IMG/VR virus record: IMGVR_UViG_3300045988_104347
Location: 1 to 39,615 of that record
DNA: 39,615 nucleotides
From: a virus
Direction: 5' to 3' (one strand)
The notes beneath the pieces were generated by a model. That model was not told the DNA's origin. It did no database searches and was given only the letters and a program-made list of their open reading frames with translations. Position 1 is the first letter of the stretch. The number at the start of each line of letters is the position of its first letter. This document shows, one piece after another, positions 278 to 39,615 of the stretch. The position numbers were made by a program, and so were the translations under genes.

Positions 278-332
<55 letters not shown>

Positions 333-354
<22 letters not shown>

Positions 355-1772
355 ATAGTTCCCACGACCGAAGTTAATGTACTTTGTATGTTAATTTCGG
401 TCGTGTTTTTTATATCTATACGAGAAATGAGCAGGCGTATAGCTTTATCGTCTGGGCTGTCATGCAGAGCCTTGAGCCAAAGAGAAATCTGATCCGTAGT
501 GTAGTCCTTTGGCATTTCCGTCTTCTTCAATGCCTCTATCTCAGAACGGAGTTGGTTCATCTTCGCACCGATATCCTCGATAACATCAGCTGGGAGGACA
601 CCACTTGACATGTTGGTCATCAAGGTGTCATACTGCTTCTGCTTCTCCGATATCTTAGATGCAACTATCTTTTTGAAATCAGCAGCTCTCTCAGGCTCTC
701 CGCACTTGTACTTTCGCATAGCCTTAGCAATGGCCTTTTGATTTTCTTCACTGAGCAGGGTGCGAAGATATGTCTTAGCGGCGTCATCAACGATATCCAT
801 AGATATCATAGGTGCACCGCACTTCTTTGAACAACGATAGTAGTGATATACGTGTCCTTTCTTCGTTGATATGTGTGCGTGCATTTTCGCACCGCATGAG
901 CAGTAGACTAACCCACTGCATAGATATGATGTCTTTGGTCCACTCTGTTTTCTGCTATCCATAATCTTCTGCACCTCGTCAAATGTTGCCTTGTCGATTA
1001 TCATCGGCAAGGCATTTTCTATTCTTATAGCATTAGGCTTAGACCTGCGCTTGGATCTATCCTTTTCCTCGTCAACACAGTATATATATGTTCCTGTGTA
1101 TTTCTCGTTTCGTAGTATCTCATATACTGCAGAATACTTCAAGGGCTTTCCACGCTTGCCCACAATGCCCACTGCCGTCATTTCTGCGATAATGTCCTTA
1201 GTTCCCTCGTGATTTTTCACCGCCGCAAAGATCTTGCGGACATATTCCGCCTCATAGGGGTTTATGATGTACTTCTGATCTACGATATCATATCCGAACG
1301 GCGGATAGCCGCCATTGTGAAGACCTTTCAGGGCTATTTCACGTTCTCCCTTTTTCGTTTCATTTGCAAGGTTATCTATATAGTATTCTGACATTGACCA
1401 CATCAGTGCACGCATTATCTTGCTTTCAGGTCCAAGTCCGAAGTCCTGACCTACCGCTATCAGTGTAATGCCCATTTTCTGCAGGCGAGCGTCAAGATTA
1501 ACGTGTTCGCCCAGTGATCTAGCCACACGATCGTATTTGTGAATAAGAATAGTATCGAAAGTACCCTTATTGCAGTCTCTCAACATTTTTTGATACTGCG
1601 CACGGCTTGCCGTCATTGACCCCTTACCACTGATAGCCTCGTCCGCATATACTGCTACGATATTATATCCCTTAGTGGCGGCATACTGTCTGCACGCCCT
1701 GAGCTGGGCTTCAATGCTATCCTCAGACTGCTTGTCCGACGAGTATCTTGCATATATAACTGCATTGCTCAT
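333..1772 (-). CDS. Large serine recombinase (phage integrase), 479 aa
   Basis: N-terminal resolvase-type catalytic domain (AVIYARYSSDKQ, YDRVARS). Central recombinase domain. Cys-rich zinc ribbon (CSGLVYCSCGAKMH...YYRCSKKCGAP). C-terminal coiled coil. RBS GGGAG upstream of ATG 1772. The ORF 3' end crosses attL and stops inside the tRNA. Confidence 0.92.
363..411 (+). terminator. Phage-supplied hairpin plus T-run downstream of the rebuilt tRNA 3' end
   Basis: CACGACCGAA (363-372) pairs with TTCGGTCGTG (396-405), followed by TTTTTT (406-411). The loop is long (23 nt), so terminator efficiency is uncertain. It lies inside the 3' tail of the integrase ORF on the other strand. Confidence 0.5.
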
Positions 1773-1790: not shown

Positions 1791-2372
1791 TTATTTCGGA
1801 CGAACCGTGTCGGCAATCGCTAGAAAATCTTTGGTACTATCTTCATAATCAGGATCTAGCATGAGAACATAGAAGTAACCATTTATATCAGCCACAGCCG
1901 CCGTATTGAAAGAAGTTGAAAGGTAAACCTCACAATCGGAAAGCCCGTTAACGAATGAATACACTTCACCATCCTGCGCCATATAGTCATTCAGAAAGTC
2001 CTCGGTGCTTATATAGCCTGGCTTCTCTGTCTTTATAATTGAAAAGCCATACCCATTTGTGACTACTGCCCATGAAGTATAGTGTTCTGTTGATTTTAGC
2101 TTCTGCTGCTGGTAATCTCCTTCTATGGTAAGGCTCAAATCGTCAAAAGTGAGTACGTTCTCAGCAGGTTTTGCAGCTGTTGTCGTTGTAGTTTCCGTAG
2201 TTGTCGTAGTTGTTGTAGTTTCTGCCGTGGTAGTAGTGGTTTCAGTAGCAGATGCCTCAGTCGTAACAGCAGGCGTTGTCGAAGTTGATGAAACGTCACT
2301 GCCCGACTCTGAGCAGCTTGTCATCATCAACAGGGTTGATATTACGGCGACTAAAATAACAATTTTCTTCAT
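1791..2372 (-). CDS. Prophage lipoprotein with Thr-rich linker (candidate superinfection-exclusion or lysogenic-conversion protein)
   Basis: Signal peptide MKKIVILVAVISTLLMMTSC with a lipobox-like Cys. Low-complexity TTTTTAETTTTTTTTETTTTT linker. C-terminal globular part of about 115 aa. RBS AAGGAGG. Sits between the ImmA gene and the integrase gene on the lysogeny strand. Confidence 0.75.
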   Translation of the reverse strand: MKKIVILVAVISTLLMMTSCSESGSDVSSTSTTPAVTTEASATETTTTTAETTTTTTTTETTTTTAAKPAENVLTFDDLSLTIEGDYQQQKLKSTEHYTSWAVVTNGYGFSIIKTEKPGYISTEDFLNDYMAQDGEVYSFVNGLSDCEVYLSTSFNTAAVADINGYFYVLMLDPDYEDSTKDFLAIADTVRPK

Positions 2373-5581: not shown

Positions 5582-5834
5582 TACCCGCAGTTCACTGATA
5601 TCGCAAGCCGTCATCAGAATAGCAACGGATATGGGGATTGAAAGCTATGTCCGAGAGATACGCCACGGCTATTCTATATGTGCCGGCGAATTCGTCATCG
5701 TTGACATGGCGGACAATACCAGCGTTAAGATGATAATATCAGATTATGACGGTTATTATCAGCAAATCAAAAGAAACCTGAGAAAATGGAGGAAAAATTA
5801 TGACAAAAAAAGACGTAGTCCTTGCACTCAATGA
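5565..5834 (+). CDS. Hypothetical early protein, 89 aa
   Basis: ATG 5565 follows GGAGGG. In-frame part of ORF 5556-5834. Confidence 0.55.
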   Translation: MYAKNDTRSSLISQAVIRIATDMGIESYVREIRHGYSICAGEFVIVDMADNTSVKMIISDYDGYYQQIKRNLRKWRKNYDKKRRSPCTQ

Positions 5835-6021
5835 AGATGTCAAGGCGGTTGATTACTTGGCAATGAGGGAGCAGAGAGACAAGCATAACAAGCTCGTTAA
5901 CCGTCGAAAGCGAGAAGATCGCAGAGAGTGCTTCGCAATGGCCTTGCTGACTATCTTTTTTGCATTCATGATAATAGTAGTAATGCTCGGCCTTGGGCAG
6001 GTATGGGAGATGATCTACTGA
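5800..6021 (+). CDS. Small membrane-anchored protein, 73 aa
   Basis: RBS GGAGGA. C-terminal hydrophobic helix CFAMALLTIFFAFMIIVVMLGLG. Confidence 0.55.
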   Translation: MTKKDVVLALNEDVKAVDYLAMREQRDKHNKLVNRRKREDRRECFAMALLTIFFAFMIIVVMLGLGQVWEMIY

Positions 6022-6323
6022 TGTATGATTTCAACAACGCAGTCAGACTTAACCGCATAGGTGGTGAATATGTCATCACTGTGGACGGAAAGCCGTTGGA
6101 AACGTCACTCAGCTCTAATCAGCGCCGTAATCCTCTTATAGCTGTCAGCAGATATGCATCAGCAATAGACGAATACCTCAGAGGGAACGTCAAGAAGTAT
6201 CTTGCTGAAAACGAGCTGAACGTTGTTACGGGTTGTAATGTCTGCATGGAGTGTACAGACTGCAAGTTCTATCACCTCAACAACGCTGAAAGCAACTGCC
6301 GCCTAGGTGACAACAATGAGTAA
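6021..6323 (+). CDS. Hypothetical early protein, 100 aa
   Basis: ATG 6021 overlaps the upstream TGA by 1 nt. C-terminal Cys cluster CNVCMECTDCKF. Confidence 0.55.
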   Translation: MYDFNNAVRLNRIGGEYVITVDGKPLETSLSSNQRRNPLIAVSRYASAIDEYLRGNVKKYLAENELNVVTGCNVCMECTDCKFYHLNNAESNCRLGDNNE

Positions 6324-6573
6324 GACCGTATACGTCGATAATACTATTTATCGAAAAGAGTCCAAGCAGTTTCCGAACGTCAAGTATCGTTTCAACCTTT
6401 CCAACGTCGTGATACATAGTATGTATACCATGTATCTTAAGAGCCGTGGCATACCGAAGACCATAGGGCTTACGGACAAGCAGCGTTTTGATTTTGAAAA
6501 ACGTGTTCAATCTCTTATCGACAACGGGTCTATCGTAGTGACAGAAGTCGAAGCAGGAACGAAAGGAAAATGA
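6316..6573 (+). CDS. Hypothetical early protein, 85 aa
   Basis: ATG 6316 lies 7 nt after AGGTGA. Confidence 0.55.
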   Translation: MSKTVYVDNTIYRKESKQFPNVKYRFNLSNVVIHSMYTMYLKSRGIPKTIGLTDKQRFDFEKRVQSLIDNGSIVVTEVEAGTKGK

Positions 6574-6710
6574 AAATGAGTACCATAGGAATAATACTGT
6601 TATCCATAGCGACGCTTATCGTTGCGGATATCGTGATGTACATAGTACTTGGTGCCATTGAAAAGCACTGGGAGAAAAAGTTTAAGGAGGATAAAGATGA
6701 CGAGAGATGA
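6570..6710 (+). CDS. Small single-pass membrane protein, 46 aa (not in ORF track)
   Basis: ATGA overlap with the upstream stop. Hydrophobic core TIGIILLSIATLIVADIVMYIVLGAI. Confidence 0.45.
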   Translation: MKMSTIGIILLSIATLIVADIVMYIVLGAIEKHWEKKFKEDKDDER

Positions 6711-7083
6711 AATAATTCTTGCAGCAAAATGCTGCATAGCAGACAACTGTGGAGCTTGTCCGTTTATGAATAGAGGTAATTGCATTACTGATTTTATGAA
6801 GAATGTTCTTGAATGCATAAAAAGTGAGCCTGCACCTGCGGCAACAGGTACAAGCTCAACGAAAAAAGAAAACACTTTTCAAGTTGATGATAGCACAAAA
6901 GAGAAGATTTGTCAAGCATATGATACCGTAGATGAAGCCTGTGCAGATATAATCGATATCTATGAAGTAATGTCTGAGCGAGAACATAGAGCTTTTAACA
7001 TTGGAGAGGCGTATGGAAAGATATGCAGCACGAGAAGTAAGTTAGAAGGACTGATCGGAGCAAGCGGAAGAGAGGGAGAGTAA
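6697..7083 (+). CDS. Cys-rich hypothetical protein, 128 aa
   Basis: ATG 6697 follows AAGGAGG. N-terminal CCIADNCGACPFMNRGNC cluster. Confidence 0.6.
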   Translation: MTRDEIILAAKCCIADNCGACPFMNRGNCITDFMKNVLECIKSEPAPAATGTSSTKKENTFQVDDSTKEKICQAYDTVDEACADIIDIYEVMSEREHRAFNIGEAYGKICSTRSKLEGLIGASGREGE

Positions 7084-7320
7084 ATGCCGATTATAACAGA
7101 CGTTGACCTGCTATGCTATAATGCTGAACTTGCAGGCGCCAGAAAGCGACTGAATTACAAATCGCCCCCGCCAAGGCATAACGCAGGCCCATGTATTTTT
7201 TATAATAGCATAAGACAAGAGTGTATGGCGCTAGTCGAGAAGCCAGCGCAAGAAACTTGCACACGCTGCAAGTTCTTCAAAACCAGAACGGAGGATTATA
7301 ATGCAGATGAATTCAAATAA
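7084..7320 (+). CDS. Cys-containing hypothetical protein, 78 aa
   Basis: Abuts the upstream stop. Contains C...C...CTRCKF. Confidence 0.55.
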   Translation: MPIITDVDLLCYNAELAGARKRLNYKSPPPRHNAGPCIFYNSIRQECMALVEKPAQETCTRCKFFKTRTEDYNADEFK

Positions 7321-7933
7321 TCAGAAACCAACATTTGATTGGAGAAAATTTAAGTATGAGAACATAGCTGTTCACGTCAAGACTCAGGAAGAATACGATA
7401 ACTTTATGAAAGAATGCAAGGCGCAGGGGTTTGCATGGTGCACTGGCAAAGAAGCTGATATGCCCAATCTTTGGCCAGACTGCGCATATGATATGTGCAT
7501 AATACATGACAATAGTGGGCTTGTAAAAAAGGGACTGCATTATCAAAGACTTGGCTTCTGGAAGGACACGGGATATAGAATAGAAGAATTCGCAAATTTC
7601 TATTTTCCAAAAGATTACCAGCCGCTTAATTCAAACAGCAATATCCCAGAAGAACAGATAGAATTCTTGGAAAAGCCAACAACGCACACCTTGAAGCTGG
7701 AAGAATGCTTCTGTGAAGCAGTTGTCACAGGTAAAAAGTGTTTTGAAATTCGTAAAAATGACAGAGGCTTTCAGCCTGGAGACACGATTGAATTCATTCC
7801 AGTAAGTAACGGACATCCTGCTATTCATGTGATATCAAACCGCAGATATAGGATAACATATGTCCTAAGTGGTTGGGGGTTGAAGAATGGATATGTTGCA
7901 TTAGGAATAGAGGAGGTAAAGAACTATGACTAG
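7301..7933 (+). CDS. Protein with C-terminal ASCH/DUF3850-like domain, 210 aa
   Basis: The C-terminal HTLKLEECFCEAVVTGKKCFEIRKNDRGFQPGDTIEF matches the DUF3850 (ASCH/PUA-like) pattern. The N-terminal ~130 aa are unassigned. Confidence 0.6.
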   Translation: MQMNSNNQKPTFDWRKFKYENIAVHVKTQEEYDNFMKECKAQGFAWCTGKEADMPNLWPDCAYDMCIIHDNSGLVKKGLHYQRLGFWKDTGYRIEEFANFYFPKDYQPLNSNSNIPEEQIEFLEKPTTHTLKLEECFCEAVVTGKKCFEIRKNDRGFQPGDTIEFIPVSNGHPAIHVISNRRYRITYVLSGWGLKNGYVALGIEEVKNYD

Positions 7934-10620: not shown

Positions 10621-11616
10621 ATGGAAAACACAGAAATTACAGTATCTATGAAAACGGCTATGGCAGAACATCAGCACATATGCGAGTGCTACCGAACAGC
10701 TGCTACGGCTATCGTTGACATGGGCAGATCTCTCAAGAATATCAGAGACTATAAGCTCTACATAGCACTGGGGTATGAGTCTTTTAGGGATTATCTTGAA
10801 AGCAATGGTGACTACACGTTCAAAGAACGTCAGGCGTATACCTATATCAAACTCTATGAGGACAATAGCACCAAGTTCCTTGAAGAACACGCAAGTATAG
10901 GCGTGACAAAGCTGGAGCTTCTCTCCAAGCTTCCGGAGTACGAACGTGAAGAATTCGCTGACACACATGACCTTGGCGGAATGACAGTTGAAGAAGTCAA
11001 GAAGCTTATCAAAGAAAAGCAGGCATTAGGCGAACAACTGACATTCCTTGAGGAGGAGAAGAAGGAGCAGACAGAAAGCGCCGAATCTCTCAGAGCTGAG
11101 CTTGAAGAACTGAGAGAAAAGCTTAAGCAGGCCGAGGACAAGCCTATCGAGGTAGTTAAGAGAGACCTCGACGAAGAAGAGATTGACAAGATAAGGCTGT
11201 CTATCCGTCAGGAACTTCATGCCGAACATATGAAAGAGCTGAATTCGCTGAAGAAGTCAAGCCGTGAAGCCGTGAATGCGGCAGAAGCTGAAAAAAATAA
11301 TGCCCTTAAGAAAGCACAGACAGAGCGTGACGATGCAGTTAAGGAAGCCGTCGCTAAGTATGAAATCGCCCTCAGTAAAGCTAAGGCTGAGGCAGAAGAA
11401 GCGGACCATGCCAAGGCAGAGTTGGAAAAGAAATTGAAGTCAGGCAATGCAGACGAAGCAAGGGTTGCGCTGAAGATCATCTTTGAAAACGTTCAGAAAG
11501 GGCTTACGGAATTCATTGAAAAAATCAATGATATTGAAGACCCACAAACCAAGGAAAAGTTCATTACTGTCACAAGCAAGTGGCTCAGACAGGCGGCTGA
11601 TGACCTTGAGGGGTGA
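10621..11616 (+). CDS. DUF3102-like N-terminal domain plus long coiled coil, 331 aa
   Basis: N-terminal IVDMGRSLKNIRDYKLYIALGYESFRDYLE, then about 180 aa of E/K/A-rich heptad-like sequence. Confidence 0.45.
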   Translation: MENTEITVSMKTAMAEHQHICECYRTAATAIVDMGRSLKNIRDYKLYIALGYESFRDYLESNGDYTFKERQAYTYIKLYEDNSTKFLEEHASIGVTKLELLSKLPEYEREEFADTHDLGGMTVEEVKKLIKEKQALGEQLTFLEEEKKEQTESAESLRAELEELREKLKQAEDKPIEVVKRDLDEEEIDKIRLSIRQELHAEHMKELNSLKKSSREAVNAAEAEKNNALKKAQTERDDAVKEAVAKYEIALSKAKAEAEEADHAKAELEKKLKSGNADEARVALKIIFENVQKGLTEFIEKINDIEDPQTKEKFITVTSKWLRQAADDLEG

Positions 11617-11638
11617 GCTGAATGACCAGAGAATTGAA

Positions 11639-12355
11639 ATGAAGAAGAACACCACCTATGAGGAAAGAAAAGCTAATGGAATATGCCCATATTGCGGGCG
11701 AGAAAAAGCTGTTCCTGGATATATTATGTGCGAGAAATGTAGAGAACAGAACAAGGAAAGATGTAAGAAACGCTATGAACGAGCGAAAGATAAAGGGCTA
11801 TGCACACGTTGTTACAAGAAGCCATCAATTGAGGGTCAAACAATGTGCAGAGAATGTCTTGCGAAAATGCTAGCGAAAGACAAAGAAAAGCGATATGGCG
11901 GAGTATGCGATATGGATTGTTTCAATTGCAAATATGATGACTGCATTAATGACAATGTGCCAGAATGCTATGCTGATTTGCCCTTTGAGGAAAAGGAAAA
12001 GATCCGAAAACGCAATCGAGCCCGATATCACGAACTTAAAGAGAGGGGAATTTGTGTAAAATGCGGAAAGCTGCCAGCAAAAGAAGGAATCACTCTTTGT
12101 GAAAGTTGCGCACACAAGAGAAGTAAGAGGGAGAAAAGGAAAAGGGCAGAAAATCAGCAGATCAGCAAGCGGGATTTATGGCGTGAACAAAGAAAATGTT
12201 ATTTCTGCGGAGGAGAATGTGTGCAAGGCCAGAAGGTGTGCACGAAACACTATGAAATGCTCAAAGCTATGGCAATGCATATGTGTGAAAGCGAAAGGAG
12301 CAAGATCGCAAGAGAACGGCTGAAAAAAGTATACTTTGCGGGAAGGCAACAATAG
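11639..12355 (+). CDS. Repeated zinc-ribbon protein with basic linkers, 238 aa
   Basis: Four CxxC...CxxC units (CPYCG..CEKC, CTRCY..CREC, CVKCG..CESC, CYFCG..C) separated by K/R-rich helices. ATG 11639 is in frame within ORF 11483-12355. Confidence 0.6.
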   Translation: MKKNTTYEERKANGICPYCGREKAVPGYIMCEKCREQNKERCKKRYERAKDKGLCTRCYKKPSIEGQTMCRECLAKMLAKDKEKRYGGVCDMDCFNCKYDDCINDNVPECYADLPFEEKEKIRKRNRARYHELKERGICVKCGKLPAKEGITLCESCAHKRSKREKRKRAENQQISKRDLWREQRKCYFCGGECVQGQKVCTKHYEMLKAMAMHMCESERSKIARERLKKVYFAGRQQ

Positions 12356-32495: not shown

Positions 32496-32628
32496 GAAAG
32501 TCAAACGTTTGTACGATTTAGGGTTGTACACAGCCGAGCAGGTCAAGGATTTTGCCGACAGGGGGAAAATCACAGCTGAGGAATATACAACAATCACAGG
32601 ACAAACATATGAAAAGGAGAAGCAGTAA
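32488..32628 (+). CDS. XkdX-like small protein, 46 aa (not in ORF track)
   Basis: MYRKVKRLYDLGLYTAEQVKDFADRGKITAEEYTTITG matches the XkdX-family pattern. Its stop overlaps the holin ATG. Confidence 0.6.
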   Translation: MYRKVKRLYDLGLYTAEQVKDFADRGKITAEEYTTITGQTYEKEKQ

Positions 32629-33077
32629 TGAAAGAAAACACAGCAAAAATCATCATATCAGCGATAGCCGCAGGGCTGTCAGCGTATTTCCGTGTTATGG
32701 CGATACCTATAGTCATTCTGGTACTTGTGATGATCATTGACTACATTACAGGAATGTGGAAAGCATGGAATAGGGGCGAACTTTCAAGCCGTGTCGGTCT
32801 TAAAGGGCTTTTCAAAAAGGTCGGCTACATATTTGTGGTGGCGGTGTCAGGCGTGCTTGATTGGCTCTTTATCTCAGGACTTTCACAGATAGGCATTGAG
32901 GTAAACGTCAGCTTTTACTTCGGTCTTATCGTAACGATATGGTTTATCATCAATGAATGTATTTCTATTTTGGAAAATCTTGCGGTGATAGGTATACCAC
33001 TGCCGTCATTCTTGGTGAAGATAGTACACAAGCTTAAAATCACAGTTGAAAACAAAACAAACGAAAGCGAGGAATAG
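32628..33077 (+). CDS. Holin (phage_holin_4_1-like)
   Basis: 149 aa. Multiple TM helices. IDYITGMWKAW motif. Immediately upstream of the endolysin gene. Confidence 0.85.
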   Translation: MKENTAKIIISAIAAGLSAYFRVMAIPIVILVLVMIIDYITGMWKAWNRGELSSRVGLKGLFKKVGYIFVVAVSGVLDWLFISGLSQIGIEVNVSFYFGLIVTIWFIINECISILENLAVIGIPLPSFLVKIVHKLKITVENKTNESEE

Positions 33078-33080
33078 AAA

Positions 33081-33761
33081 ATGACATATGATGAATTTAT
33101 CAAGAAGCACAATGGTGTAGCGATTAACTATGACGGCGCAGCAGGCAAACAGTGTGTAGACCTTGCAACGGCATATTTCAACGAGGTCTTCGGATCAGGT
33201 ATCAAGAATTTCTGGTATGACGCACACCATTTTTGGGATTTATTCGATAAGAACACTTGGCTGAAAGCAAATTTCACAAAGGTAAAGAACACGCCAAGTT
33301 TCGTGCCGAAAAAGGGTGATGTAGCGATATGGTCAGGCACGTTGAATGGCGGCTGGGGTCACATAGCAATCTGCACGGGTGAGGGCAACACGAGTTATTT
33401 TTATTCGTATGACCAGAACTGGAGCGGAAAAGCCTGCACTAAGGTCAAGCATACTTATGACCACATTGCAGGCTTCCTGAGACCAAAGAAACAGAGCAAG
33501 ATAAGTGCGAAAGTGCTTGACAAGACAGGCTACAAGCAGGGCAACAAAACAAGCGGTGTGCTTGCCCTCAAGGAGCTGTTGCTTCTTGCAAAGGCGGTCA
33601 AGCTTCACAGCGTAGGTATGGATAAGAACGGTACATACGGAAAAGGTACTGCAAAGGCAGTTAATACTCTGCTGAAAAAGTGGGGATATTACGAAAACGG
33701 CATTGCAGGCGTGAACTTCATCAAACGGCTTGGCGATGAGATTACAAAGAAGATAAAGTAG
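33081..33761 (+). CDS. Endolysin: N-terminal CHAP domain plus C-terminal peptidoglycan-binding-like domain
   Basis: CHAP Cys/His (GKQCVDLA ... WGHIAICTG). C-terminal GVLALKELL...GTYGKGTAKAVNTLL resembles PG_binding_1. Confidence 0.85.
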   Translation: MTYDEFIKKHNGVAINYDGAAGKQCVDLATAYFNEVFGSGIKNFWYDAHHFWDLFDKNTWLKANFTKVKNTPSFVPKKGDVAIWSGTLNGGWGHIAICTGEGNTSYFYSYDQNWSGKACTKVKHTYDHIAGFLRPKKQSKISAKVLDKTGYKQGNKTSGVLALKELLLLAKAVKLHSVGMDKNGTYGKGTAKAVNTLLKKWGYYENGIAGVNFIKRLGDEITKKIK

Positions 33762-33770
33762 ACAGTAAGA

Positions 33771-33804
33771 CAGCCGACAGGGATTATTCCTTGTCGGCTG
33801 TTTT
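33771..33804 (+). terminator. Rho-independent terminator ending the late operon
   Basis: CAGCCGACAGGG-ATTATT-CCTTGTCGGCTG followed by TTTTAC. Confidence 0.8.
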
Positions 33805-33810
33805 ACTTTA

Positions 33811-34002
33811 TTATTCGATTTTTTTATCTTTTGCCATATCATTCTCAACGAGTTCTACAATCAAACCGGTTAAACTTTTCCCTTTGCTCTCAGCGTAAGC
33901 CTTATATCGCTCTTTGTCGCCAAGCGGCAAGTTAAGCGTAAGTTTATCACGTTTTTCTTTCATATAGCGCATTGTGCGTTCTTTTGATTTTTCATTATAC
34001 AC
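33811..34002 (-). CDS. Ribbon-helix-helix (Arc/Mnt/CopG-like) DNA-binding protein
   Basis: KLTLNLPLGDKERYKAYAESKGKSLTGLIVELVENDM is a strand-helix-helix pattern. The likely start is GTG 34002, 8 nt after GAGGGGG (ATG 33972 is the alternative). The ORF-track N-terminus overlaps the promoter. Confidence 0.65.
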   Translation of the reverse strand: MYNEKSKERTMRYMKEKRDKLTLNLPLGDKERYKAYAESKGKSLTGLIVELVENDMAKDKKIE

Positions 34003-34023
34003 AAATGTCACCCCCTCATTGTC

Positions 34024-34032
34024 ATTATAGCA
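34024..34032 (-). promoter_or_regulatory. Extended -10 promoter (TGCTATAAT) for the RHH gene
   Basis: The minus strand reads TGCTATAAT. The -35 position coincides with operator repeat 1. Confidence 0.55.
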
Positions 34033-34042
34033 CATATTCAAT

Positions 34043-34055
34043 TACACGGCTATAT
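34043..34055 (+). repeat. Operator-like 13-mer TACACGGCTATAT, copy 1
   Basis: Exact 13-mer. Overlaps the -35 position of the RHH promoter. Confidence 0.8.
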
Positions 34056-34069
34056 GCAAAATGAACAAA

Positions 34070-34082
34070 TACACGGCTATAT
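34070..34082 (+). repeat. Operator-like 13-mer TACACGGCTATAT, copy 2
   Basis: Exact 13-mer. Flanked by the inverted heptamers AACAAAT/ATTTGTT (34064-34070, 34083-34089). Confidence 0.8.
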
Positions 34083-34110
34083 ATTTGTTGATATTTTAAT
34101 ATAAAAGTCA

Positions 34111-34139
34111 TTGACATATACACGGCTATATGCTATAAT
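34111..34139 (+). promoter_or_regulatory. Consensus promoter of the right-arm accessory operon
   Basis: TTGACA (34111-34116), 17-nt spacer, TGC-TATAAT (34134-34139). Confidence 0.8.
34119..34131 (+). repeat. Operator-like 13-mer TACACGGCTATAT, copy 3
   Basis: Exact 13-mer. Lies entirely within the 17-nt spacer of the rightward consensus promoter. Confidence 0.8.
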
Positions 34140-34172
34140 AATATCAGAAAAGAACGAAAGGGGGCGGTTAAA

Positions 34173-34286
34173 TTGGACAAGAAAATAAAAAAGCTTGTTA
34201 AGCTGGTCCAACAACTTAACAAGCTAATGATCGAGATAATCGGCTTGATTGGCTACATCTTGATCATAAAAGATTTACTTAAATAA
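34173..34286 (+). CDS. Mini membrane peptide 1, 37 aa (TTG start; not in ORF track)
   Basis: LDKKIKKLVKLVQQLNKLMIEIIGLIGYILIIKDLLK. RBS AAAGGGGG 8 nt upstream. Lys-rich amphipathic N-terminus and hydrophobic C-terminus. Confidence 0.45.
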   Translation: MDKKIKKLVKLVQQLNKLMIEIIGLIGYILIIKDLLK

Positions 34287-34362
34287 GTAAATTCGGCAGA
34301 AAGGAGAGTTGACCGCTCTCCTAACTGCTTGAATTATACCACAAAAACGAAAGGGTGTCAAT

Positions 34363-34449
34363 ATGAAAAATGATATTTTCAAACTTTGTAAAGAGCTGCT
34401 CAAGCTTGGCGGATTGATACTTGCAGTAGCGTACCTGGTGTTAAGATAA
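34363..34449 (+). CDS. Mini membrane peptide 2, 28 aa (not in ORF track)
   Basis: MKNDIFKLCKELLKLGGLILAVAYLVLR. Same ACGAAAGGG leader as peptide 1 and the same architecture. Confidence 0.45.
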   Translation: MKNDIFKLCKELLKLGGLILAVAYLVLR

Positions 34450-34467
34450 TTCAAGGAGGTAAATAAC

Positions 34468-35022
34468 ATGATAGTTACAGTTGAAAACGAGAAAATCAAG
34501 GTCAACAGTCCGTACAACAAGAGCTTTGTCGCAGGGGCAAAGCAGATACAGGGTAAGTGGAACGCCCCTTGCTGGGTCTTCCCAGAGGAGAACAAGGAAG
34601 CCGTCAAGGCGTTGCTTATTGAATGCTACGGAGAGTGTGGAGAGCTTGGTGCGGTCAGCACTGTCACAGTAGATCTTGACCTCGACACTTATACAGAGGG
34701 TTACGAGGACGGAGAAATCAGAGTTGGCTCAATCGTTGTTTTGAAAAGACTCTATCGTGATAGAGAGGTTATTTTCTCCGACAATGCAATGCTTATAAGC
34801 GGTGGCTTTGCCACTTCGGGCGGCTCTGCCAAAAATCCCAGAATATCAGCTGACGAGGGTACAATCGTTCGTGTTAAGGGTGTGCCTGAAACAATTTACA
34901 GCAAGATAAAGGACCATAAGGGCGTTAAGCTTGTATCTGATATAGACGTGGAAAGCTTAAAAACAGAGCGTGAAAAGCTTCTCAAAAGAATTGCCGAAAT
35001 AGACGGCTTGCTTGCGCTATGA
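34468..35022 (+). CDS. Unknown 184-aa protein, translationally coupled to the short serine recombinase
   Basis: RBS AAGGAGG. The N-terminal SPYNKSFVAGAKQIQGKWNAPCWVFP weakly resembles the DUF5710-type motif. C-terminal coiled segment ESLKTEREKLLKRIAEIDGLL. Its stop overlaps the next ATG (ATGA). Confidence 0.7.
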   Translation: MIVTVENEKIKVNSPYNKSFVAGAKQIQGKWNAPCWVFPEENKEAVKALLIECYGECGELGAVSTVTVDLDLDTYTEGYEDGEIRVGSIVVLKRLYRDREVIFSDNAMLISGGFATSGGSAKNPRISADEGTIVRVKGVPETIYSKIKDHKGVKLVSDIDVESLKTEREKLLKRIAEIDGLLAL

Positions 35023-35825
35023 AAGCGGCGGTCTATATAAGGGTGTCAACGCTGGACCAAGCACGAGAGGGGTACTCCCTCTCTGCCCAGCGAAAGACAC
35101 TAACAGAATGGTGCGCCACAAGAGGTTATGAGGTATACAATGTATATGCCGACGAGGGTATAAGTGCAAAAGATATTACACACCGCCCAGCGTGTCAAGC
35201 CATGCTTGAAGCGGCGTATAACAGTGAATTTGATATCATACTGATATGGGCGTTAAGCCGTTTCACAAGGTCCGTTGCAGATCTTTACGATACATGGGAT
35301 AAACTACAAAAACATAACGTCGGCGTTGTAAGTTGCACAGAGGGTTTCGACACATCTACACCGACAGGGCGTGCTATGATGGGCGTACTTGGTGTTTTCG
35401 CCCAAATGGAGAGAGAATTGACGGCTGAAAGAGTTTCGTTTGCTTTAGCTGAAAGAGCTTCACAGGGGAAGCGGACTTGCTCTGACGTTTTAGGCTATAA
35501 CCTAGACGGAAAGGATAGTCTTACTATCAATGAAACAGAGGCAGAAGTTGTTCGGTTAATTTTCAAAAAATTCATTGAGTATCAGTCCTATCTACCTGTA
35601 GCTGAGATAGTCAACGCAATGGGGCATCATGGGCGACGAGGAAGTTCATTTAACGCTGAGTCGATAAAGAAAATAGTAACACGCCCTGTTTACATCGGCT
35701 ATTATAGCTTTAAGGGGCATTTATATCAGGGCGACTATGAGCCGTTGATATCGGAAAAAGATTGGAGACACGCACAACGTATCGTACAGAAGATACGTTG
35801 CGGTCGGAGAAAGTATATCAGATAG
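35019..35825 (+). CDS. Serine recombinase, 268 aa: catalytic plus recombinase domains only (no zinc ribbon or coiled coil)
   Basis: AAVYIRVSTLDQ (nucleophile Ser), LSRFTRS, FAQMERELTAERV, then a recombinase-domain-like GYNLDG...EAEVVRLIF...IVTRPVYIGYY. Ends at RCGRRKYIR, directly before a strong terminator. Confidence 0.85.
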   Translation: MKAAVYIRVSTLDQAREGYSLSAQRKTLTEWCATRGYEVYNVYADEGISAKDITHRPACQAMLEAAYNSEFDIILIWALSRFTRSVADLYDTWDKLQKHNVGVVSCTEGFDTSTPTGRAMMGVLGVFAQMERELTAERVSFALAERASQGKRTCSDVLGYNLDGKDSLTINETEAEVVRLIFKKFIEYQSYLPVAEIVNAMGHHGRRGSSFNAESIKKIVTRPVYIGYYSFKGHLYQGDYEPLISEKDWRHAQRIVQKIRCGRRKYIR

Positions 35826-35830
35826 TATTT

Positions 35831-35869
35831 CAGACGTCTCGGAGTGATCTGAGACGTCTGATTTTTTTT
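35831..35869 (+). terminator. Rho-independent terminator of the right-arm operon
   Basis: CAGACGTCTC-(10-nt loop)-GAGACGTCTG followed by A-TTTTTTTT. Confidence 0.85.
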
Positions 35870-35927
35870 CTATCGTTGAAAAAAGTATAAAAATTTGAAA
35901 AGTATCGTGGGAAAAATATGTTGCGGT

Positions 35928-35939
35928 CTCCCGCAACCA
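35928..35939. repeat. attR common core CTCCCGCAACCA
   Basis: Identical to 343-354. The left flank (35906-35925) is the symmetric partner of 347-366. Confidence 0.85.
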
Positions 35940-35996: not shown

Positions 35997-36369
35997 GATA
36001 TTTAGAAAACAAAAAATTTTAATGTAAAACCGTGGATGCTTTTCACCAGTTTTCACGAAAAAAAGGGAGTCGAACCCTACACAACAAAAAATATCGAACA
36101 TAACGGCAGACTTTGAGTATATTTTGCTCTAAGCCTGCCGATTTTTTATGAAAAAACATTCACAAAGTTTAGAAGGCTGTTTTGTCAAATATCACGAAAT
36201 GTGATAAACGACAAAGCGGTCTTTTTTTATTTCAAAGGAGGCTTGATAACAAATATACTATAAAAAGGGAATCTAAAACGACTGGAGGTGATCAAGTAAA
36301 AAATAAACAGCAGTCAGACCGATGATATGACCAAAGACCCGATATGGGAATGACGATGTGAGGCAGAAT

Positions 36370-36645
36370 ATGATTTACAACGAAAAGAAGGTAGAAATGC
36401 TCAGGCAGAGATATCCCGAAGGAACTCGGATATGCCTTGACAGTATGGATAACGATCCCCGTCCGATTCCACCAGGTACTAAAGGCATAGTTCAATTTGT
36501 GGACGATGCAGTAACTCTGCATTGTAAATTTGACAACGGAAGAACGCTTGGGGTTATCCCCGATGTGGATAAGTTCCATAAAATCGCTCAGGAACAGGCT
36601 CTGAATGATACGCAAAGGCAGAATCCGCCGTCTGATGCCTGTTGA
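36370..36645 (+). CDS. DUF4314-like protein with an aberrant C-terminal tail
   Basis: EKKVEMLRQRYPEGTRICLDSMDNDPRPIPPGTKGIVQFVDDAVTLHCKFDNGRTLGVIP matches the DUF4314 pattern. The last ~15 codons overlap the methylase remnant in another frame. Confidence 0.6.
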   Translation: MIYNEKKVEMLRQRYPEGTRICLDSMDNDPRPIPPGTKGIVQFVDDAVTLHCKFDNGRTLGVIPDVDKFHKIAQEQALNDTQRQNPPSDAC

Positions 36646-36826
36646 GTGCTGGCGGCTTCAAGGTTTTACAACCGAACAGTTTGAAAAAGTCGCAACTGCA
36701 GGAATGTCCGACGCACAGATCTACAAGCAGGCAGGAAATTCAATTACGGTAAATGTGGTTGAAGCTATTGCAAGAAATTTACTGAAATTTGACGAGGAGG
36801 AAAACGCAAATGGAACAGGTAATTAA
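36605..36826 (+). pseudogene. 3' remnant of a C5 cytosine DNA methyltransferase (motifs IX-X only)
   Basis: RRLMPVECWRLQGF and YKQAGNSITVNV are the C-terminal Dcm-type motifs. About 300 N-terminal residues (motifs I-VIII) are absent upstream. Confidence 0.75.
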
Positions 36827-37583
36827 AATCTTTGAAAACGAGGAATTCGGCAAAGTGAGAACGGTCGTAAAAGACGGTGAACCGTGGTTTGTAGGCAAAG
36901 ATGTTGCGGAATGCCTTGGATATTCTAAGCCAAGAAATGCGATTAACGCTCATGTTGACAACGAAGATAAGGCACTCGCCCCGATTCAGGGCGGGTGTTC
37001 TACGGGTACTCAGAATACGATGATAATTAACGAAAGCGGACTTTACAGTCTGGTACTTTCAAGCAAGCTTCCGAGAGCCAAAGAATTCAGGCGTTGGGTC
37101 ACAGCCACGATTTTACCAACTTTGAGGAGAACAGGCGGCTACGTCAGCAACGAAGAAATGTTTATAGAAAACTACCTCCCGTTTCTCGACGAGCCGTACC
37201 GTGACCTGTTCCGAATTCAAATGACGATCATAGGAAAGCTGAACGAGCGTATCCGTCACGATCAGCCACTGGTGGAGTTTGCAAATCAGGTGTCAAATAC
37301 CGATAATCTTATCGACATGAACGCAATGGCAAAGCTTGCGAGAGCAGAAAATATCCCCGTCGGCAGAAACAAGCTTTACGGCTGGCTCAAAGGAAAAGGC
37401 GTTCTTATGGCGAATAATCTCCCCTATCAGGCGTTTATCGACCGAGGATATTTTTCCGTAAAGGAGTCGGTTTTTGAAACTCCGACCATGACAAAGACCT
37501 ATCAGCAGACGTTTGTGACAGGAAAAGGGCAAAGATTTGTGATCACTCTGCTGAGAAAATATTATGGCAAGGAGATGGGATAA
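36810..37583 (+). CDS. Antirepressor (Bro-N domain plus KilAC/ANT C-terminal domain)
   Basis: IFENEEFGKVRTVVKDGEPWFVGKDVAECLGY (Bro-N). The C-terminal half has the KilAC-type pattern (AKLARAENIPVGRNKLYGWL). ATG 36810 follows GGAGGA. Confidence 0.8.
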   Translation: MEQVIKIFENEEFGKVRTVVKDGEPWFVGKDVAECLGYSKPRNAINAHVDNEDKALAPIQGGCSTGTQNTMIINESGLYSLVLSSKLPRAKEFRRWVTATILPTLRRTGGYVSNEEMFIENYLPFLDEPYRDLFRIQMTIIGKLNERIRHDQPLVEFANQVSNTDNLIDMNAMAKLARAENIPVGRNKLYGWLKGKGVLMANNLPYQAFIDRGYFSVKESVFETPTMTKTYQQTFVTGKGQRFVITLLRKYYGKEMG

Positions 37584-37780
37584 TGCACACAAACAGAATT
37601 AAAGCTAAAGTTGACTTCAAGTTCTGCCTCGGCAGTATTCCAGCAATGCTGAGAGCCACAAAGCCCGTACTTTCGGAAAGGCAGTACAAGGAGCTGTGTA
37701 ACGAGGTCAATAAAGCCAACGGCTACCTTGAACAGAAACGCATCATATTCAGCTATGTTGACCCGATAATCAAGGGTTGA
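37583..37780 (+). CDS. Hypothetical protein, 65 aa
   Basis: ATG overlaps the upstream stop (TAATG). Confidence 0.5.
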   Translation: MHTNRIKAKVDFKFCLGSIPAMLRATKPVLSERQYKELCNEVNKANGYLEQKRIIFSYVDPIIKG

Positions 37781-37948
37781 AAATACAACAAATGAAAATC
37801 AGCGGGCAGGCAGTATAGTTCATATCAAATTTGAACGTAAATTGCGCCGTCCGCGCTAGGACAAGGTTGTTTTGCCAACAGCAGATAAAAATCTGGTGCT
37901 TGCAAAGCGACTTTTCTGCTGTTGGTTCTAACGGCAGAAAGGAAAAAC

Positions 37949-38791
37949 ATGAACAGTTTTATGTCATGGGTAGGCGGAAAGAAAGCGTTGCGTGACGCCG
38001 TGCTTGCTCGCTTTCCTCCATATTATGAACGGTATATCGAGGTTTTCGGGGGCGCAGGCTGGGTGCTTTTTCGCAAACCGCCCGGTATGGATTTTGAGGT
38101 GTACAACGATTTTAACGGAAACCTTGCAAACCTGTACCGCTGTGTAAGAGATAAACCGAATAAGCTGAAATACAAGCTTCGTTATGTCCTCGATTCTCGT
38201 GAAGATTTCGACTGGATTGCTAGTCTTCACAAGCGAGGTCTGTTCAGCAGATTTCGTGATGTTGACAGGGCGGCGAAGTTTTATCAGCTTATTAGATACA
38301 GCTACGCAAGCGGACTTGACAGCTTTGCAAGTCAGCCGCATTCAATATGGTCGGATTTCCCGATGATAGACTTGGCAGCAAGGAGATTGCAGAAGGTAGC
38401 AGTTGAGAATAAAGACTTTGAAAAACTGATACGGCAGTACGACCGCCCTGTCAGCTTTTTTTATTGCGATCCACCGTACTTTGCAACCGAAAACTACTAC
38501 AAAGACGTTGGTTTTAAAACCAAGGATCATATTAGGCTCAGGGATTCGCTAATGGATATCAAGGGCAAGTTTCTTGTTTCCTACAATGACTGTCCAGAAA
38601 TCCGTGAGATATGGGATAAGCCTAATATTCACATTGAGGAGATCAGCAGACTGAATAATCTGGCGCAGAGATACGACGGCGGCTGTCAGTATGCGGAGCT
38701 GCTCATATCCAATTACGATACAAGCGAGAGATTACAGGCGGTTCGCCAGCTTTCGCTGTTTGACGATGAAACAGACAATTTGGAGGTATAA
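37949..38791 (+). CDS. N6-adenine DNA methyltransferase, Dam/D12-class, orphan
   Basis: WVGGKK, FGGAGWV (AdoMet motif) and DPPY (FFYCDPPYFATENYY). No adjacent restriction endonuclease gene. ATG 37949 follows GAAAGGA. Confidence 0.85.
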   Translation: MNSFMSWVGGKKALRDAVLARFPPYYERYIEVFGGAGWVLFRKPPGMDFEVYNDFNGNLANLYRCVRDKPNKLKYKLRYVLDSREDFDWIASLHKRGLFSRFRDVDRAAKFYQLIRYSYASGLDSFASQPHSIWSDFPMIDLAARRLQKVAVENKDFEKLIRQYDRPVSFFYCDPPYFATENYYKDVGFKTKDHIRLRDSLMDIKGKFLVSYNDCPEIREIWDKPNIHIEEISRLNNLAQRYDGGCQYAELLISNYDTSERLQAVRQLSLFDDETDNLEV

Positions 38792-38795
38792 TTTT

Positions 38796-39065
38796 ATGAA
38801 AAAAATAATTTTTGCACAAGTAATGGCAGACAACGGAAAAAGCGTATTTTCGGGGCTTTTTGATGAAAACGGCGATCCCGTAAGCGTAGAAACGGAGTGC
38901 GATGATAGCGGAGTGACGCTTACGATATGGCGAAATGCTCCCGAAAGAGAACGCCGTGACTGCGGTATCTCAGAGGAAGAGATTGAGAGGACTTGCGCTA
39001 TGCATGATGACTGCAGTGATTGTCCGCTGTGGGATTATTGCAATGAAGATGAGGAGGTTTTGTAA
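38796..39065 (+). CDS. Hypothetical acidic Cys-containing protein, 89 aa
   Basis: ATG 38796 follows GGAGG. Confidence 0.55.
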   Translation: MKKIIFAQVMADNGKSVFSGLFDENGDPVSVETECDDSGVTLTIWRNAPERERRDCGISEEEIERTCAMHDDCSDCPLWDYCNEDEEVL

Positions 39066-39476
39066 ATGAAAATACTTGTTATTGAGCCTGAAAAAGCGCC
39101 GTATGAAAAGGAAATCGGCGATGATATTCACGATATGCAGGCAATAGTCGGAGGGTGTATCGAACCTATATATTTTGAGCCGAAAGAAACTGCGATTGCT
39201 TGGTGCAACGATGAATTCCTGCTTAATGGTTCACAGCCTAATCGTATTGTGGGAAATGTTCTTGTACATGGAACTTTCTTTGTTTCAGGAAATTATATGA
39301 ACGAATACGGCGAATGGGACAGCTGTTCACTTACCGATGATCAGATCAAGAAATATTCCGAAATGTTTGAAACTCCCATTATCGTATTGGAGCAAATGCA
39401 GGCTACGGAAATTGAGGTAGAAAATACTCCCGATGAGGAAATGGCGGATGAACCTGAGCCGGAAATAACGATGTAA
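39066..39476 (+). CDS. DUF3846-like protein
   Basis: MKILVIEPEKAPYEKEIGDDIHDMQAIVGGCIEPIY... matches the DUF3846 N-terminal pattern common on conjugative elements. Confidence 0.6.
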   Translation: MKILVIEPEKAPYEKEIGDDIHDMQAIVGGCIEPIYFEPKETAIAWCNDEFLLNGSQPNRIVGNVLVHGTFFVSGNYMNEYGEWDSCSLTDDQIKKYSEMFETPIIVLEQMQATEIEVENTPDEEMADEPEPEITM

Positions 39477-39523
39477 TAAAAAGTAAAGTGTTGTAATTTA
39501 AAATCAAAGGAGAAATGTACTTT

Positions 39524-39615
39524 ATGTTTAAAATTAAATCAAAGATTTTAAAGAAACTTAGCGCAGGGTTCATGGCAGGACTCTGCGCTTTTTCTATGCT
39601 CGGTTCATCTGTGAG
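39524..39615 (+). CDS. 5' end of a secreted/membrane protein gene (partial)
   Basis: RBS AAAGGAGA. MFKIKSKILKKLSAGFMAGLCAFSMLGSSV is signal-peptide-like. Runs off the window. Confidence 0.5.
   Translation, partial: MFKIKSKILKKLSAGFMAGLCAFSMLGSSV

Follow-up and report, generated by a model that had tools for sequence, protein, structure and literature searches.

Serine integrases are central tools for the insertion of large DNA, and both their size and their directionality depend on a zinc-ribbon/coiled-coil domain; in these large serine recombinases (LSRs) it reads the outer half-sites of the attachment (att) sites and sets the direction of the reaction, and the known directionality factors bind either the coiled coil or the zinc-ribbon domain. 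On the regulatory side, the immI region of phage P22 (mnt/arc/ant, sar) has a divergent ribbon-helix-helix (RHH) repressor with its operator over a strong promoter, and a small antisense RNA made from a convergent promoter in the leader; in Firmicutes, prgQ/prgX of pCF10 with its Anti-Q RNA, and RNA I/RNA II of the pAD1 par locus, are sense/antisense switches driven by convergent promoters. Here we describe a cassette of 2 kb in which features of both kinds appear to meet. It was found in the 39,615-nt IMG/VR virus record IMGVR_UViG_3300045988_104347 (called the window throughout, at its full length), which contains a temperate, siphovirus-like prophage (343-35939) with flanking DNA; the closest isolate genome is Hominimerdicola aceti. 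The cassette occupies a variable slot (33805-35827) between the lysis genes and attR and encodes, besides a divergent repressor and two leader peptides, a 184-aa protein (p184) of no annotated family and a 268-aa short serine recombinase (SR268). We give an even chance to the reading that it is a site-specific recombination module whose expression is conditional, under the double control of a repressor and an antisense RNA, and in which p184 is a probable accessory factor. On this reading the cassette is, in the window, auxiliary to the integrase of the phage, because the phage has one of its own. Its chemistry and its regulatory motifs are of known kinds; its domain architecture, its recurrent partner and its double gate are not described, and the literature searched, coverage of which was incomplete, held no description of LSR-type recombinases lacking a zinc ribbon or of the p184 family.

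SR268 has an intact catalytic signature (YIRVSTLDQ / SRFTR), invariant across the family alignment, and two complete domains, the Resolvase domain PF00239 (9e-41) and the Recombinase domain PF07508 (1e-16, profile positions 1-100 of 102); beyond the latter match only 11 residues remain. The zinc ribbon PF13408 has no match in SR268, while the 479-aa integrase of the phage does score in the same kind of search. An earlier account of this DNA, made without database searches and called here the sequence-only reading, had described the catalytic motifs as intact and the zinc ribbon as missing, and was right on both. The C-terminal part is an LSR-type recombinase domain and not the ~45-aa helix-turn-helix (HTH) of small serine recombinases. 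Sequence affinity is far closer to TP901-1 Int (1e-22; catalytic domain 5e-22) than to gamma-delta resolvase (1e-4), the best NCBIfam match is CcrB, the PHROG class is integrase, and PADLOC yields only a weak, partial match to JukA (E = 0.006). An AlphaFold2 (AF2) model with a predicted local distance difference test score (pLDDT) of 82 can be superposed in full on the N-terminal ~290 residues of three integrases, those of SPbeta, Bxb1 and phiC31 (query-based TM-score, TMq, up to 0.71); structural matches in Foldseek are confined to the first ~290 residues of targets 486-596 aa long, and for the C-terminal half the A118 recombinase domain gives a fit of 1.7 A across 126 columns. SR268 was also considered as a paralogue or partner of the 479-aa integrase and rejected, as the two are only 27% identical.

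Over 1000 homologues of SR268 exist (1050 at E<=1e-10). The best 120 are 179-299 aa long, nearly all of them 250-299 aa; PF00239 and PF07508 are present in all but a truncated one of 179 aa, and a zinc ribbon in none. The 24 distinct p184-SR268 alleles are all intact, with a ratio of nonsynonymous to synonymous polymorphism (pN/pS) of 0.076 for p184 and 0.066 for SR268; among the 13 alleles from phages with the att site of the window, the values are 0.072 and 0.062. SR268 is under strong purifying selection and, judged by its relatives, is a natural short form and not a decayed one. Further short recombinases of the same family (55-59% identity) were seen in contigs of 80-210 kb (L292-L313), within long co-directional arrays of small open reading frames (ORFs) and each preceded by a conserved protein of 105-111 aa (MRKYEVIEDNGGGLTLVVFN...).

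The sequence-only reading had taken six parts as one fixed system, which they are not: the repressor, of one of three RHH types or of the HTH_26 family, and the leader peptides are exchanged between variants, and only p184 and the recombinase are constant. The conserved core, as far as the sequences tell, is this pair with its ATGA overlap, and the pairing recurs in three diverged lineages. At L095, a p184 homologue of 63% identity overlaps by 4 nt the gene of a short serine recombinase (79% identity to SR268); at L290, one of 30% identity, located beside terminase genes, again overlaps by 4 nt a short serine recombinase gene (57% identity). The set of genes does recur elsewhere, the lack of which the sequence-only reading had named as a ground for giving up its proposal.

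p184 has no family match in Pfam, NCBIfam or PADLOC. An exhaustive profile search returned 2125 clusters (counted at 50% identity) at E<=1e-3 and 1414 at E<=1e-10, mostly stand-alone proteins of 180-200 aa from phages, plasmids and integrative conjugative elements (ICEs) of several phyla. The AF2 model (pLDDT 88) begins with a small alpha/beta domain, is rich in beta structure in the middle and ends in a long helix (161-183); it has no fold match in the PDB, the searched copy of which holds the complexes of the SPbeta and phiC31 integrases with their recombination directionality factors (RDFs), and in the predicted viral structures of BFVD its sole match is gp41 of SSIP-1. The N-terminal ~50 residues superpose at 1-2 A, with weak E-values, on the N-terminal domains of phage helicases and topoisomerases, and one homologue matches DUF5710 faintly. 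Three homologues from high-GC, apparently actinobacterial, sources (P0258, P0260, P0243) carry a C-terminal excisionase-type HTH_17/MerR domain, and in P0296 (889 aa) the p184 domain is joined to a C-terminal Eco57I-like methyltransferase.

The neighbours of other p184 homologues are of several kinds. In Fusobacterium phages a 303-aa tyrosine recombinase follows 2 nt downstream; many gut contigs of 60-115 kb have an 86-aa gene and then a 284-aa tyrosine recombinase; plasmid-like contigs bearing a relaxase, and ParA as well, have two small genes and then a 187-aa resolvase; and a high-GC viral contig (L382) has a large serine recombinase immediately upstream. A cyanophage homologue lies next to a KfrA-like gene. 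Recombinases are not nearby at the start of an ICE-like element beside dnaA or in plasmids with ParA/ParB and AcrVA2-like genes, and none was detected at 12 of 16 distant viral loci. By a rough count, which has no null comparison, about 11 of about 27 p184 lineages have a recombinase within 3 kb, which is suggestive.

What the recombinase may do is best seen in a sister phage, contig L318, whose short recombinase SR266 is 79% identical to SR268. There the order is GH25 endolysin, HTH_26 protein, 49-aa peptide, p184 and SR266, followed by an 80-aa ORF, a 362-aa HSDR_N-like gene, a CI-like repressor and the early genes, that is, the order of the circular form with its phage attachment site (attP). 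No recombinase other than SR266 is called within 10 kb of attP on either side. L317, L319, L320, L322 and L323 agree with it throughout as far as ...TTTTGGTCG and then run into the 3' end of tRNA-Pro(GGG), with host genes beyond it; in a high-coverage contig (L321) the sequence breaks off precisely at this junction. Circular and tRNA-Pro-integrated forms of the SR266 phage thus both exist, with one precise junction throughout. The nearest relative, L324, is 93% identical on the side from tail to endolysin and 98% on the repressor side; in it the place of the SR266 cassette is taken by two cargo genes and a 383-aa tyrosine integrase, together with an attP that includes 17 nt of tRNA-Pro(CGG). 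By this comparison the SR266 cassette has replaced a whole integration module, in a phage that is seen both joined and integrated. As SR266 stands alone near attP in a phage found in both forms, integration and excision are reactions that the module can probably perform; the case is the strongest evidence for this, incomplete as it is. Just past tRNA-Pro(GGG), L320 encodes a canonical large serine recombinase of a further element (11156-12139, minus strand), which suggests tandem occupancy of the locus in that host.

Table 1. Features of the cassette and of its surroundings in the window.
Feature	Position	Strand	Remarks
tRNA-Met	278-354	+	ARAGORN and sequence; 3' end (343-354) is the attL core
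Own integrase of the prophage, 479-aa LSR	333-1772	-	Resolvase, Recombinase and Zn_ribbon_recom domains; context, outside the cassette
Holin	32628-33077		Right end of prophage
CHAP endolysin	33081-33761		Right end of prophage
Late-operon intrinsic terminator	33764-33807	+	20-bp stem, then T run; its end is the left edge of the variable cargo slot
Divergent RHH repressor (RHH-A)	33811-34002	-	63 aa from GTG 34002; alternatives ATG 33972 (53 aa) and mechanical TTG 34041 (76 aa)
Three direct 13-bp operators TACACGGCTATAT (putative)	34043-34055, 34070-34082, 34119-34131		Exact copies; the third lies between -35 and -10
Operon promoter TTGACA-17-TATAAT	34111-34139	+	12 of 12 consensus positions; third repeat in the spacer
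Leader peptide A, 37 aa (predicted)	34173-34286	+	TTG start; Lys-rich N-terminus, then hydrophobic helix; weak match to phrog_7712 (6.6e-4)
Antisense unit (predicted)	34185-34361	-	Promoter TTGACA-17-TATAAT at 34361-34333; terminator at 34225-34192, inside the peptide A ORF
Leader peptide B, 28 aa (predicted)	34363-34449	+	Hydrophobic C-terminal half; 27-aa counterpart in L095, read from sequence
p184, 184 aa	34468-35022	+	Unannotated family of mobile elements; overlaps SR268 by ATGA
SR268, 268 aa	35019-35825	+	Catalytic domain, alpha-E helix, LSR-type recombinase domain; ATGA overlap with p184
Downstream intrinsic terminator	35830-35869	+	14-bp stem and T run; its end is the cassette right edge in every context examined
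attR	35899-35939		Phage-derived left arm of the attP of the own LSR, and 12-bp core CTCCCGCAACCA (35928-35939)

The organization of the control region (Table 1) was largely as the sequence-only reading had it: the divergent RHH gene, the three exact repeats, the perfect operon promoter, the four ORFs with the ATGA overlap and a terminator hairpin of the late operon ahead of the cassette are all in the sequence. That reading had missed a second perfect promoter, on the minus strand, and the minus-strand terminator behind it. The repressor, RHH-A, probably starts at GTG 34002 or ATG 33972 rather than at 34041; by profile it matches a PHROG Arc-like repressor (6e-6), DUF6364 (2.6e-5, below the Pfam cutoff) and ParG (0.04), and in the PDB there are weak matches to AmrZ, Mnt (E 0.9) and ParG. 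Elsewhere its position is held by RHH-B, RHH-C or an HTH_26 protein of 74 or 118 aa. The repeat TACACGGCTATAT has five matches with at most two mismatches where 0.73 are expected, a number reached in one of 100 shuffles, and of the 101 fetched loci it is confined to the 12 with an RHH-A gene. One of these 12, GenBank MT836843, has only repressor and leader in common with the window (33832-34468). The repeats had also been considered as res-like sites of the recombinase, and this was rejected, confined as they are to RHH-A loci that include this record, which lacks p184 and SR268. When the regulatory regions are aligned, the operon promoter has its -35 and -10 boxes at fixed positions and a spacer that varies with the type of regulator; this covariation supports repression at the promoter spacer.

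The minus-strand promoter and terminator predict a structured antisense RNA of ~140-150 nt that would start at ~34326. The corresponding 148 nt (34180-34327, minus strand) fold into four stem-loops at -46.5 kcal/mol, against an average of -25.5 for shuffled sequences (z = -6.5), none of 200 being as stable; a search of Rfam with this RNA gave no family match and nothing near gathering scores. In function it would resemble the sar RNA of P22 or the Anti-Q RNA of pCF10. At L095, where the regulator is an HTH_26 protein and the leader peptide has 49 aa, the leader cannot be aligned with that of the window and the design is alike all the same: a perfect plus-strand promoter is faced by a perfect convergent one 266 bp downstream, and the minus-strand terminator lies within the Lys-rich first part of the peptide ORF. 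Seven of nine cassettes checked have a perfect minus-strand promoter, the others besides L095 being L159, L161, L162, L192, L283 and L290; L098 and L101 do not. Terminators were examined in the window and in L095. Other recombinase cassettes, whose leaders are different, have the convergent arrangement upstream as well. As for the leader peptides, translation of which is predicted, the sequence-only reading regarded them as paralogues, and comparison detects no similarity between A and B. In some variants a Lys-rich amphipathic peptide of 48-49 aa, its frame kept despite many substitutions and a one-codon indel, takes the place of peptide A and is followed by a hydrophobic peptide of 27 aa.

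The prophage has, at its left end, the gene of the 479-aa LSR, followed by genes for an ImmA-like peptidase and a CI-like repressor; the comparison below indicates that it was integrated into tRNA-Met by this LSR. The attR postulated by the sequence-only reading is real: comparison of the circular form with both ends of the prophage places the 12-bp core CTCCCGCAACCA at attL, in the 3' end of tRNA-Met, and again at attR. The circular form is represented by the 36.2-kb contig L024, in which the stop codon of the 479-aa integrase follows ~107 bp after the SR268 gene. The attP of this integrase is a near-perfect palindrome of 46 bp, CGTGGGAA-aaatat-GTTGCGG-TCTC-CCGCAAC-caatag-TTCCCACG (L024 7440-7490; window 343-354 and 35899-35939), the expected form for a site of an LSR. 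The 3' end of the tRNA is rebuilt by the attP core, and the integrase ORF spans the core, with the result that its last three residues differ between prophage and circular form. The last 30-nt region of the SR268 gene (35776-35805) is 77% identical to the left arm of this attP (35899-35928), including the motif ATA(C/T)GTTGCGGTC, which is absent from the SR266 gene; the likeness could be chance, or a trace of the joining of the cassette to the backbone.

The cassette was proposed by the sequence-only reading to be a self-contained accessory unit with its own repressor in the variable slot between lysis genes and att, and this holds. L191 and L211 have the same endolysin and att core, and genes for 362 aa and 56 aa instead of the cassette; their homology to the window halts at 33804 and restarts at 35828. 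In L191, a phage otherwise nearly identical, this alternative cargo is a 362-aa protein with no Pfam match (5827-6915) and a convergent hydrophobic ORF of 56 aa (6927-7097, minus strand). Of 80 viral contigs with the endolysin at 96-98% identity, ~17 carry the cassette, and in roughly half of the 80 the downstream sequence is too short for the cargo to be judged. Phages lacking the cassette use the same 479-aa integrase and the same att site. The claim of own promoters and an own terminator is true for the promoter; the terminator hairpin (35830-35861), with compensatory changes of its stem in variant sequences, is present as well in phages with unrelated cargo in the slot. Further exchange joints lie inside the cassette, at ~34128/34161 and at 34455. 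Immediately after the T run of the terminator the sequence differs, with four contexts seen: the attP arm of the 479-aa LSR in the window; an att region of tyrosine-integrase type, in two versions, which has TTCGTGTCATAT arm repeats and tRNA-Pro(CGG); and, in the isolate of H. aceti, an att arm whose TACACGA repeats recall the attP of another phage with a tyrosine integrase. By these junctions, at least three phage backbones carry the cassette as cargo next to attP, and their integrases differ, being either an LSR or one of two kinds of tyrosine integrase; control of the directionality of the phage's own integrase, another role which had been offered, is unlikely given that the cassette is found beside all of these.

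Where tRNA-Pro lies 200-350 bp downstream, SR268 was considered as the integrase and rejected, the TTCGTGTCATAT repeats in between being arm-type features of a tyrosine-integrase attP in ~60 contigs. The tandem repeat is located 131 bp from tRNA-Pro(CGG), or directly beside the tyrosine integrase gene (L033 5166-5190; L027 ~7425-7450; ~60 IMG/VR contigs, L392-L447), and appears to be the arm-type site of an attP widespread among Oscillospiraceae phages of the gut; the attP of the L324-type phage and the H. aceti junction (L102) are flanked by an analogous repeat, TACACGA(T/A).

Some features of the surroundings may be added. To the right of attR (36000-39615) the window holds another mobile element and not core host DNA, with DUF4314, a Bro-N/KilAC antirepressor (36789-37583, outside the prophage), a Dam-type methyltransferase, small acidic ORFs and a C-terminal fragment of a C5 cytosine methyltransferase (36605-36826) which overlaps the DUF4314 ORF; genes of these kinds are also met around p184 homologues in plasmid-like contigs. 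A 193-aa ORF immediately upstream of the integrase (1791-2372, minus strand), with a lipoprotein-like signal sequence, a long Thr-rich linker and a weak 'New_glue' match, looks like a typical moron or surface-exclusion candidate; it was compared with p184 as a possible relative and is unrelated.

In the mechanism that we propose, the operon would be kept silent by two layers. Sequence and covariation point to RHH repressor bound to the three tandem operators, one of them in the promoter spacer. Promoter, terminator and predicted fold point to a second layer, in which the convergent promoter ~220 bp downstream would give rise to the antisense RNA across the first leader ORF, and read-through would be damped through transcriptional interference, RNA pairing or the two together. 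Absence or loss of the repressor, upon entry into a naive cell or upon induction, would then lead to a burst of operon expression; SR268 would, as dimers, recognize short sites by means of its recombinase domain and recombine DNA site-specifically, with p184 possibly as an accessory or architectural factor. A bolder form of this proposal, doubtful on the whole and put forward tentatively, is that recombinases of the SR266/SR268 type and p184 together make up a compact two-component serine integrase, in which p184 with its long helix would provide in trans the control of synapsis and directionality that canonical serine integrases owe to their coiled coil, and the gate would confine enzyme activity to a pulse; for the SR266 phage this would be the sole route into tRNA-Pro, and the SR268 copies would be a second, portable capability for integration or excision.

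A number of observations weigh against the recombination module. A recombination site for SR268 was not found in the window, and the cassette stops at the terminator and takes no att-like arm along. Near-identical cassettes lie beside the attP of other integrases in at least three backbones, which makes them dispensable for integration there; and alleles of different backbones are intermixed, so that selection may act mainly outside the backbone of the window. About 10 kb of the L318 contig was outside the search, which leaves the claim that SR266 is its sole recombinase incomplete, and attL and attB of the SR266 phage were not recovered, the single metagenome scan having returned only the sister phage with the tyrosine integrase. 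On the side of p184, the SSIP-1 gp41 homologue is annotated in GenBank as a structural (virion) protein, many homologues have no nearby recombinase and lie amid plasmid partition genes and neighbours of anti-defence type, and many members of the short-recombinase family have unrelated upstream genes of 89-209 aa in its stead, which means that p184 is not an obligate partner of the whole family. Repression, antisense RNA and peptide translation are all predictions.

Among the alternatives, p184, with or without the peptides, could be the payload of an establishment or anti-defence cargo or of a defence or exclusion system, with the recombinase as a passenger or an aid to cassette mobility. The slot between endolysin and att is indeed hypervariable, with unrelated cargo in phages that have the same endolysin; p184 homologues lie among leading-region genes of plasmids and ICEs (AcrVA2-like, DUF932, DUF4314, DUF3846, SSB, ParA/ParB), one is fused to the Eco57I-like methyltransferase, and a promoter gated by its own repressor would fire on entry into a repressor-free cell. 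We nevertheless regard this as unlikely, since the recombinase is constrained as strongly as p184 and translationally coupled to it, a coupling that outlasts deep divergence, while peptides and repressor are exchangeable; moreover, p184 has no structural likeness to any solved anti-defence or defence protein, and PADLOC has no match for four of the five proteins (p184, the RHH protein and the peptides). The lack of a meaningful PADLOC match and of a Pfam or NCBIfam family for p184 bears out the view of the sequence-only reading that the system is undescribed; its suggestion that the peptides are membrane effectors of exclusion or abortive infection found nothing in support. Slightly less likely still is a stability module for the resolution of multimers or cointegrates, in which SR268 would act like a resolvase on one site per replicon (dimers of phages or plasmid-prophages, tandem prophages) with p184 as accessory. 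Recombination between identical sites would be the simplest chemistry for an enzyme that, having neither zinc ribbon nor coiled coil, has no known basis for telling attP from attB; p184 homologues occur upstream of the 187-aa small resolvase in plasmid-like contigs with relaxase and ParA, and beside KfrA-like, ParA or ParB genes, and members of the family reside in plasmid-like or jumbo contigs of 80-210 kb, in arrays of small genes. Yet no res-like site was found near the gene: a repeat scan of 2.4 kb revealed no paired sites resembling res, hix, gix or enhancers, and the three upstream repeats track the RHH protein, not the recombinase. Resolution systems, furthermore, are usually constitutive or autoregulated and not doubly silenced, the phage of the window integrates and shows no partition genes among its annotated genes, and the L318 cassette occupies the position of an integrase module.

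The leader taken by itself resembles a type I toxin-antitoxin system, a toxic small peptide with an antisense RNA as antitoxin, which would then stand upstream of an unrelated recombinase operon: the peptides are small and hydrophobic or amphipathic, and a strong convergent promoter would produce a structured RNA over a peptide ORF that has the terminator inside it. This is improbable, however, as the peptides are inside the operon, with no plus-strand terminator intervening between the repressed promoter and p184, the version of the overlapped peptide with 48-49 aa is amphipathic and not membrane-spanning, Rfam offers no antitoxin family, and other recombinase cassettes have the convergent design with different leaders. 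The sequence-only reading had also thought of a DNA-rearranging switch, for which the 10-bp inverted repeats CTTGAATTAT (34328-34337) and ATAATTCAAG (34446-34455) are candidate sites: they lie on either side of peptide B together with the minus-strand promoter's -35 box, and inversion by SR268 of the ~108 bp between them would set TTGACA ~17 bp upstream of GATAAT, directed toward p184, as read from the sequence. Such a phase switch is very improbable in view of the junctions, 14 of which across all fetched loci are native and none inverted; the repeats are exact over just 10 bp, the 2.4 kb scanned has 27 inverted-repeat pairs of similar size, and variant leaders do not have CTTGAATTAT/ATAATTCAAG in common. 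A last prospect, which the sequence-only reading itself had named as fatal to its proposal, is that a full-length integrase has decayed, leaving the 268-aa ORF as its 5' part and the cassette as debris, and the gene does have about half the canonical length of an LSR gene and adjoins an att site. It is barely credible for a protein with over 1000 homologues, nearly all of ~250-300 aa and with the same domain boundary at the end, whose alleles are intact and constrained, whose recombinase domain is complete and whose gene is followed by a terminator. The readings as inversion switch and as decayed remnant are essentially excluded.

The family of serine recombinases lacking the zinc ribbon is large, strongly constrained and phage-borne, and in one phage a member is apparently the only recombinase beside a working attP. 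If the recombination module is real, it would be either an integrase of reduced size that works with a separate partner protein, or a regulated phage resolvase or invertase of a new class. The pairing of p184 with recombinases of three mechanistic classes is a concrete and testable lead, and the predicted gate of repressor and antisense RNA, with its exchangeable repressors, is a compact and potentially reusable regulatory design. Should the cassette prove to be ordinary cargo, a well-defined hypervariable slot and its exchange joints have been mapped in abundant Oscillospiraceae phages of the human gut.

Set beside the LSRs (Bxb1, SPbeta SprA, phiC31, A118, TP901-1 and CcrB of SCCmec), SR268 superposes in catalytic domain, alpha-E helix and recombinase domain, and like them it is phage-borne and adjoins attP; in contrast to them it ends ~10 residues past the recombinase domain and has neither zinc ribbon nor coiled coil, its family measures ~250-300 aa against 440-700 aa, and it is usually accompanied by another integrase. 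With the small serine recombinases (Tn3/gamma-delta resolvase, Sin, Hin/Gin) it shares catalytic fold and size class, and it likely acts on similar sites because the directionality domains are absent; p184 homologues, too, are found upstream of a genuine resolvase of 187 aa. The C-terminal part sets it apart from these, with ~100 aa of LSR recombinase domain in place of the short HTH. Systems with an accessory protein, such as XisF with XisH/XisI of Anabaena or the LSRs with their RDFs (SprB, gp3, gp47), are similar in that a recombinase is coupled to a small or medium partner of no general family, and some p184 homologues have an excisionase-type HTH_17 domain; p184 itself resembles no searched PDB chain in sequence or fold, and unlike those partners it also occurs where no recombinase is near.

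In regulatory logic the comparison with P22 immI, already drawn by the sequence-only reading, holds. The analogy is closer than had been stated because of the predicted sar-like antisense RNA, and it comprises as well the divergent RHH gene, the putative operator in the promoter spacer and the accessory location. The payload, however, is a recombinase pair and not the antirepressor Ant, a second, Arc-like repressor is not in the operon, the similarity of RHH-A to Mnt is weak, and the repressor is freely swapped for HTH_26 proteins. As in pCF10 and par, transcription from a strong promoter crosses a short peptide ORF on its way to fate-determining genes downstream and is opposed by a convergent promoter for a structured antisense RNA, here predicted, of ~100-150 nt; the leader in the window differs from these in that no plus-strand attenuator terminator was found in it and that its peptides have no evidence as signals or toxins, and the repressor is encoded divergently rather than convergently.

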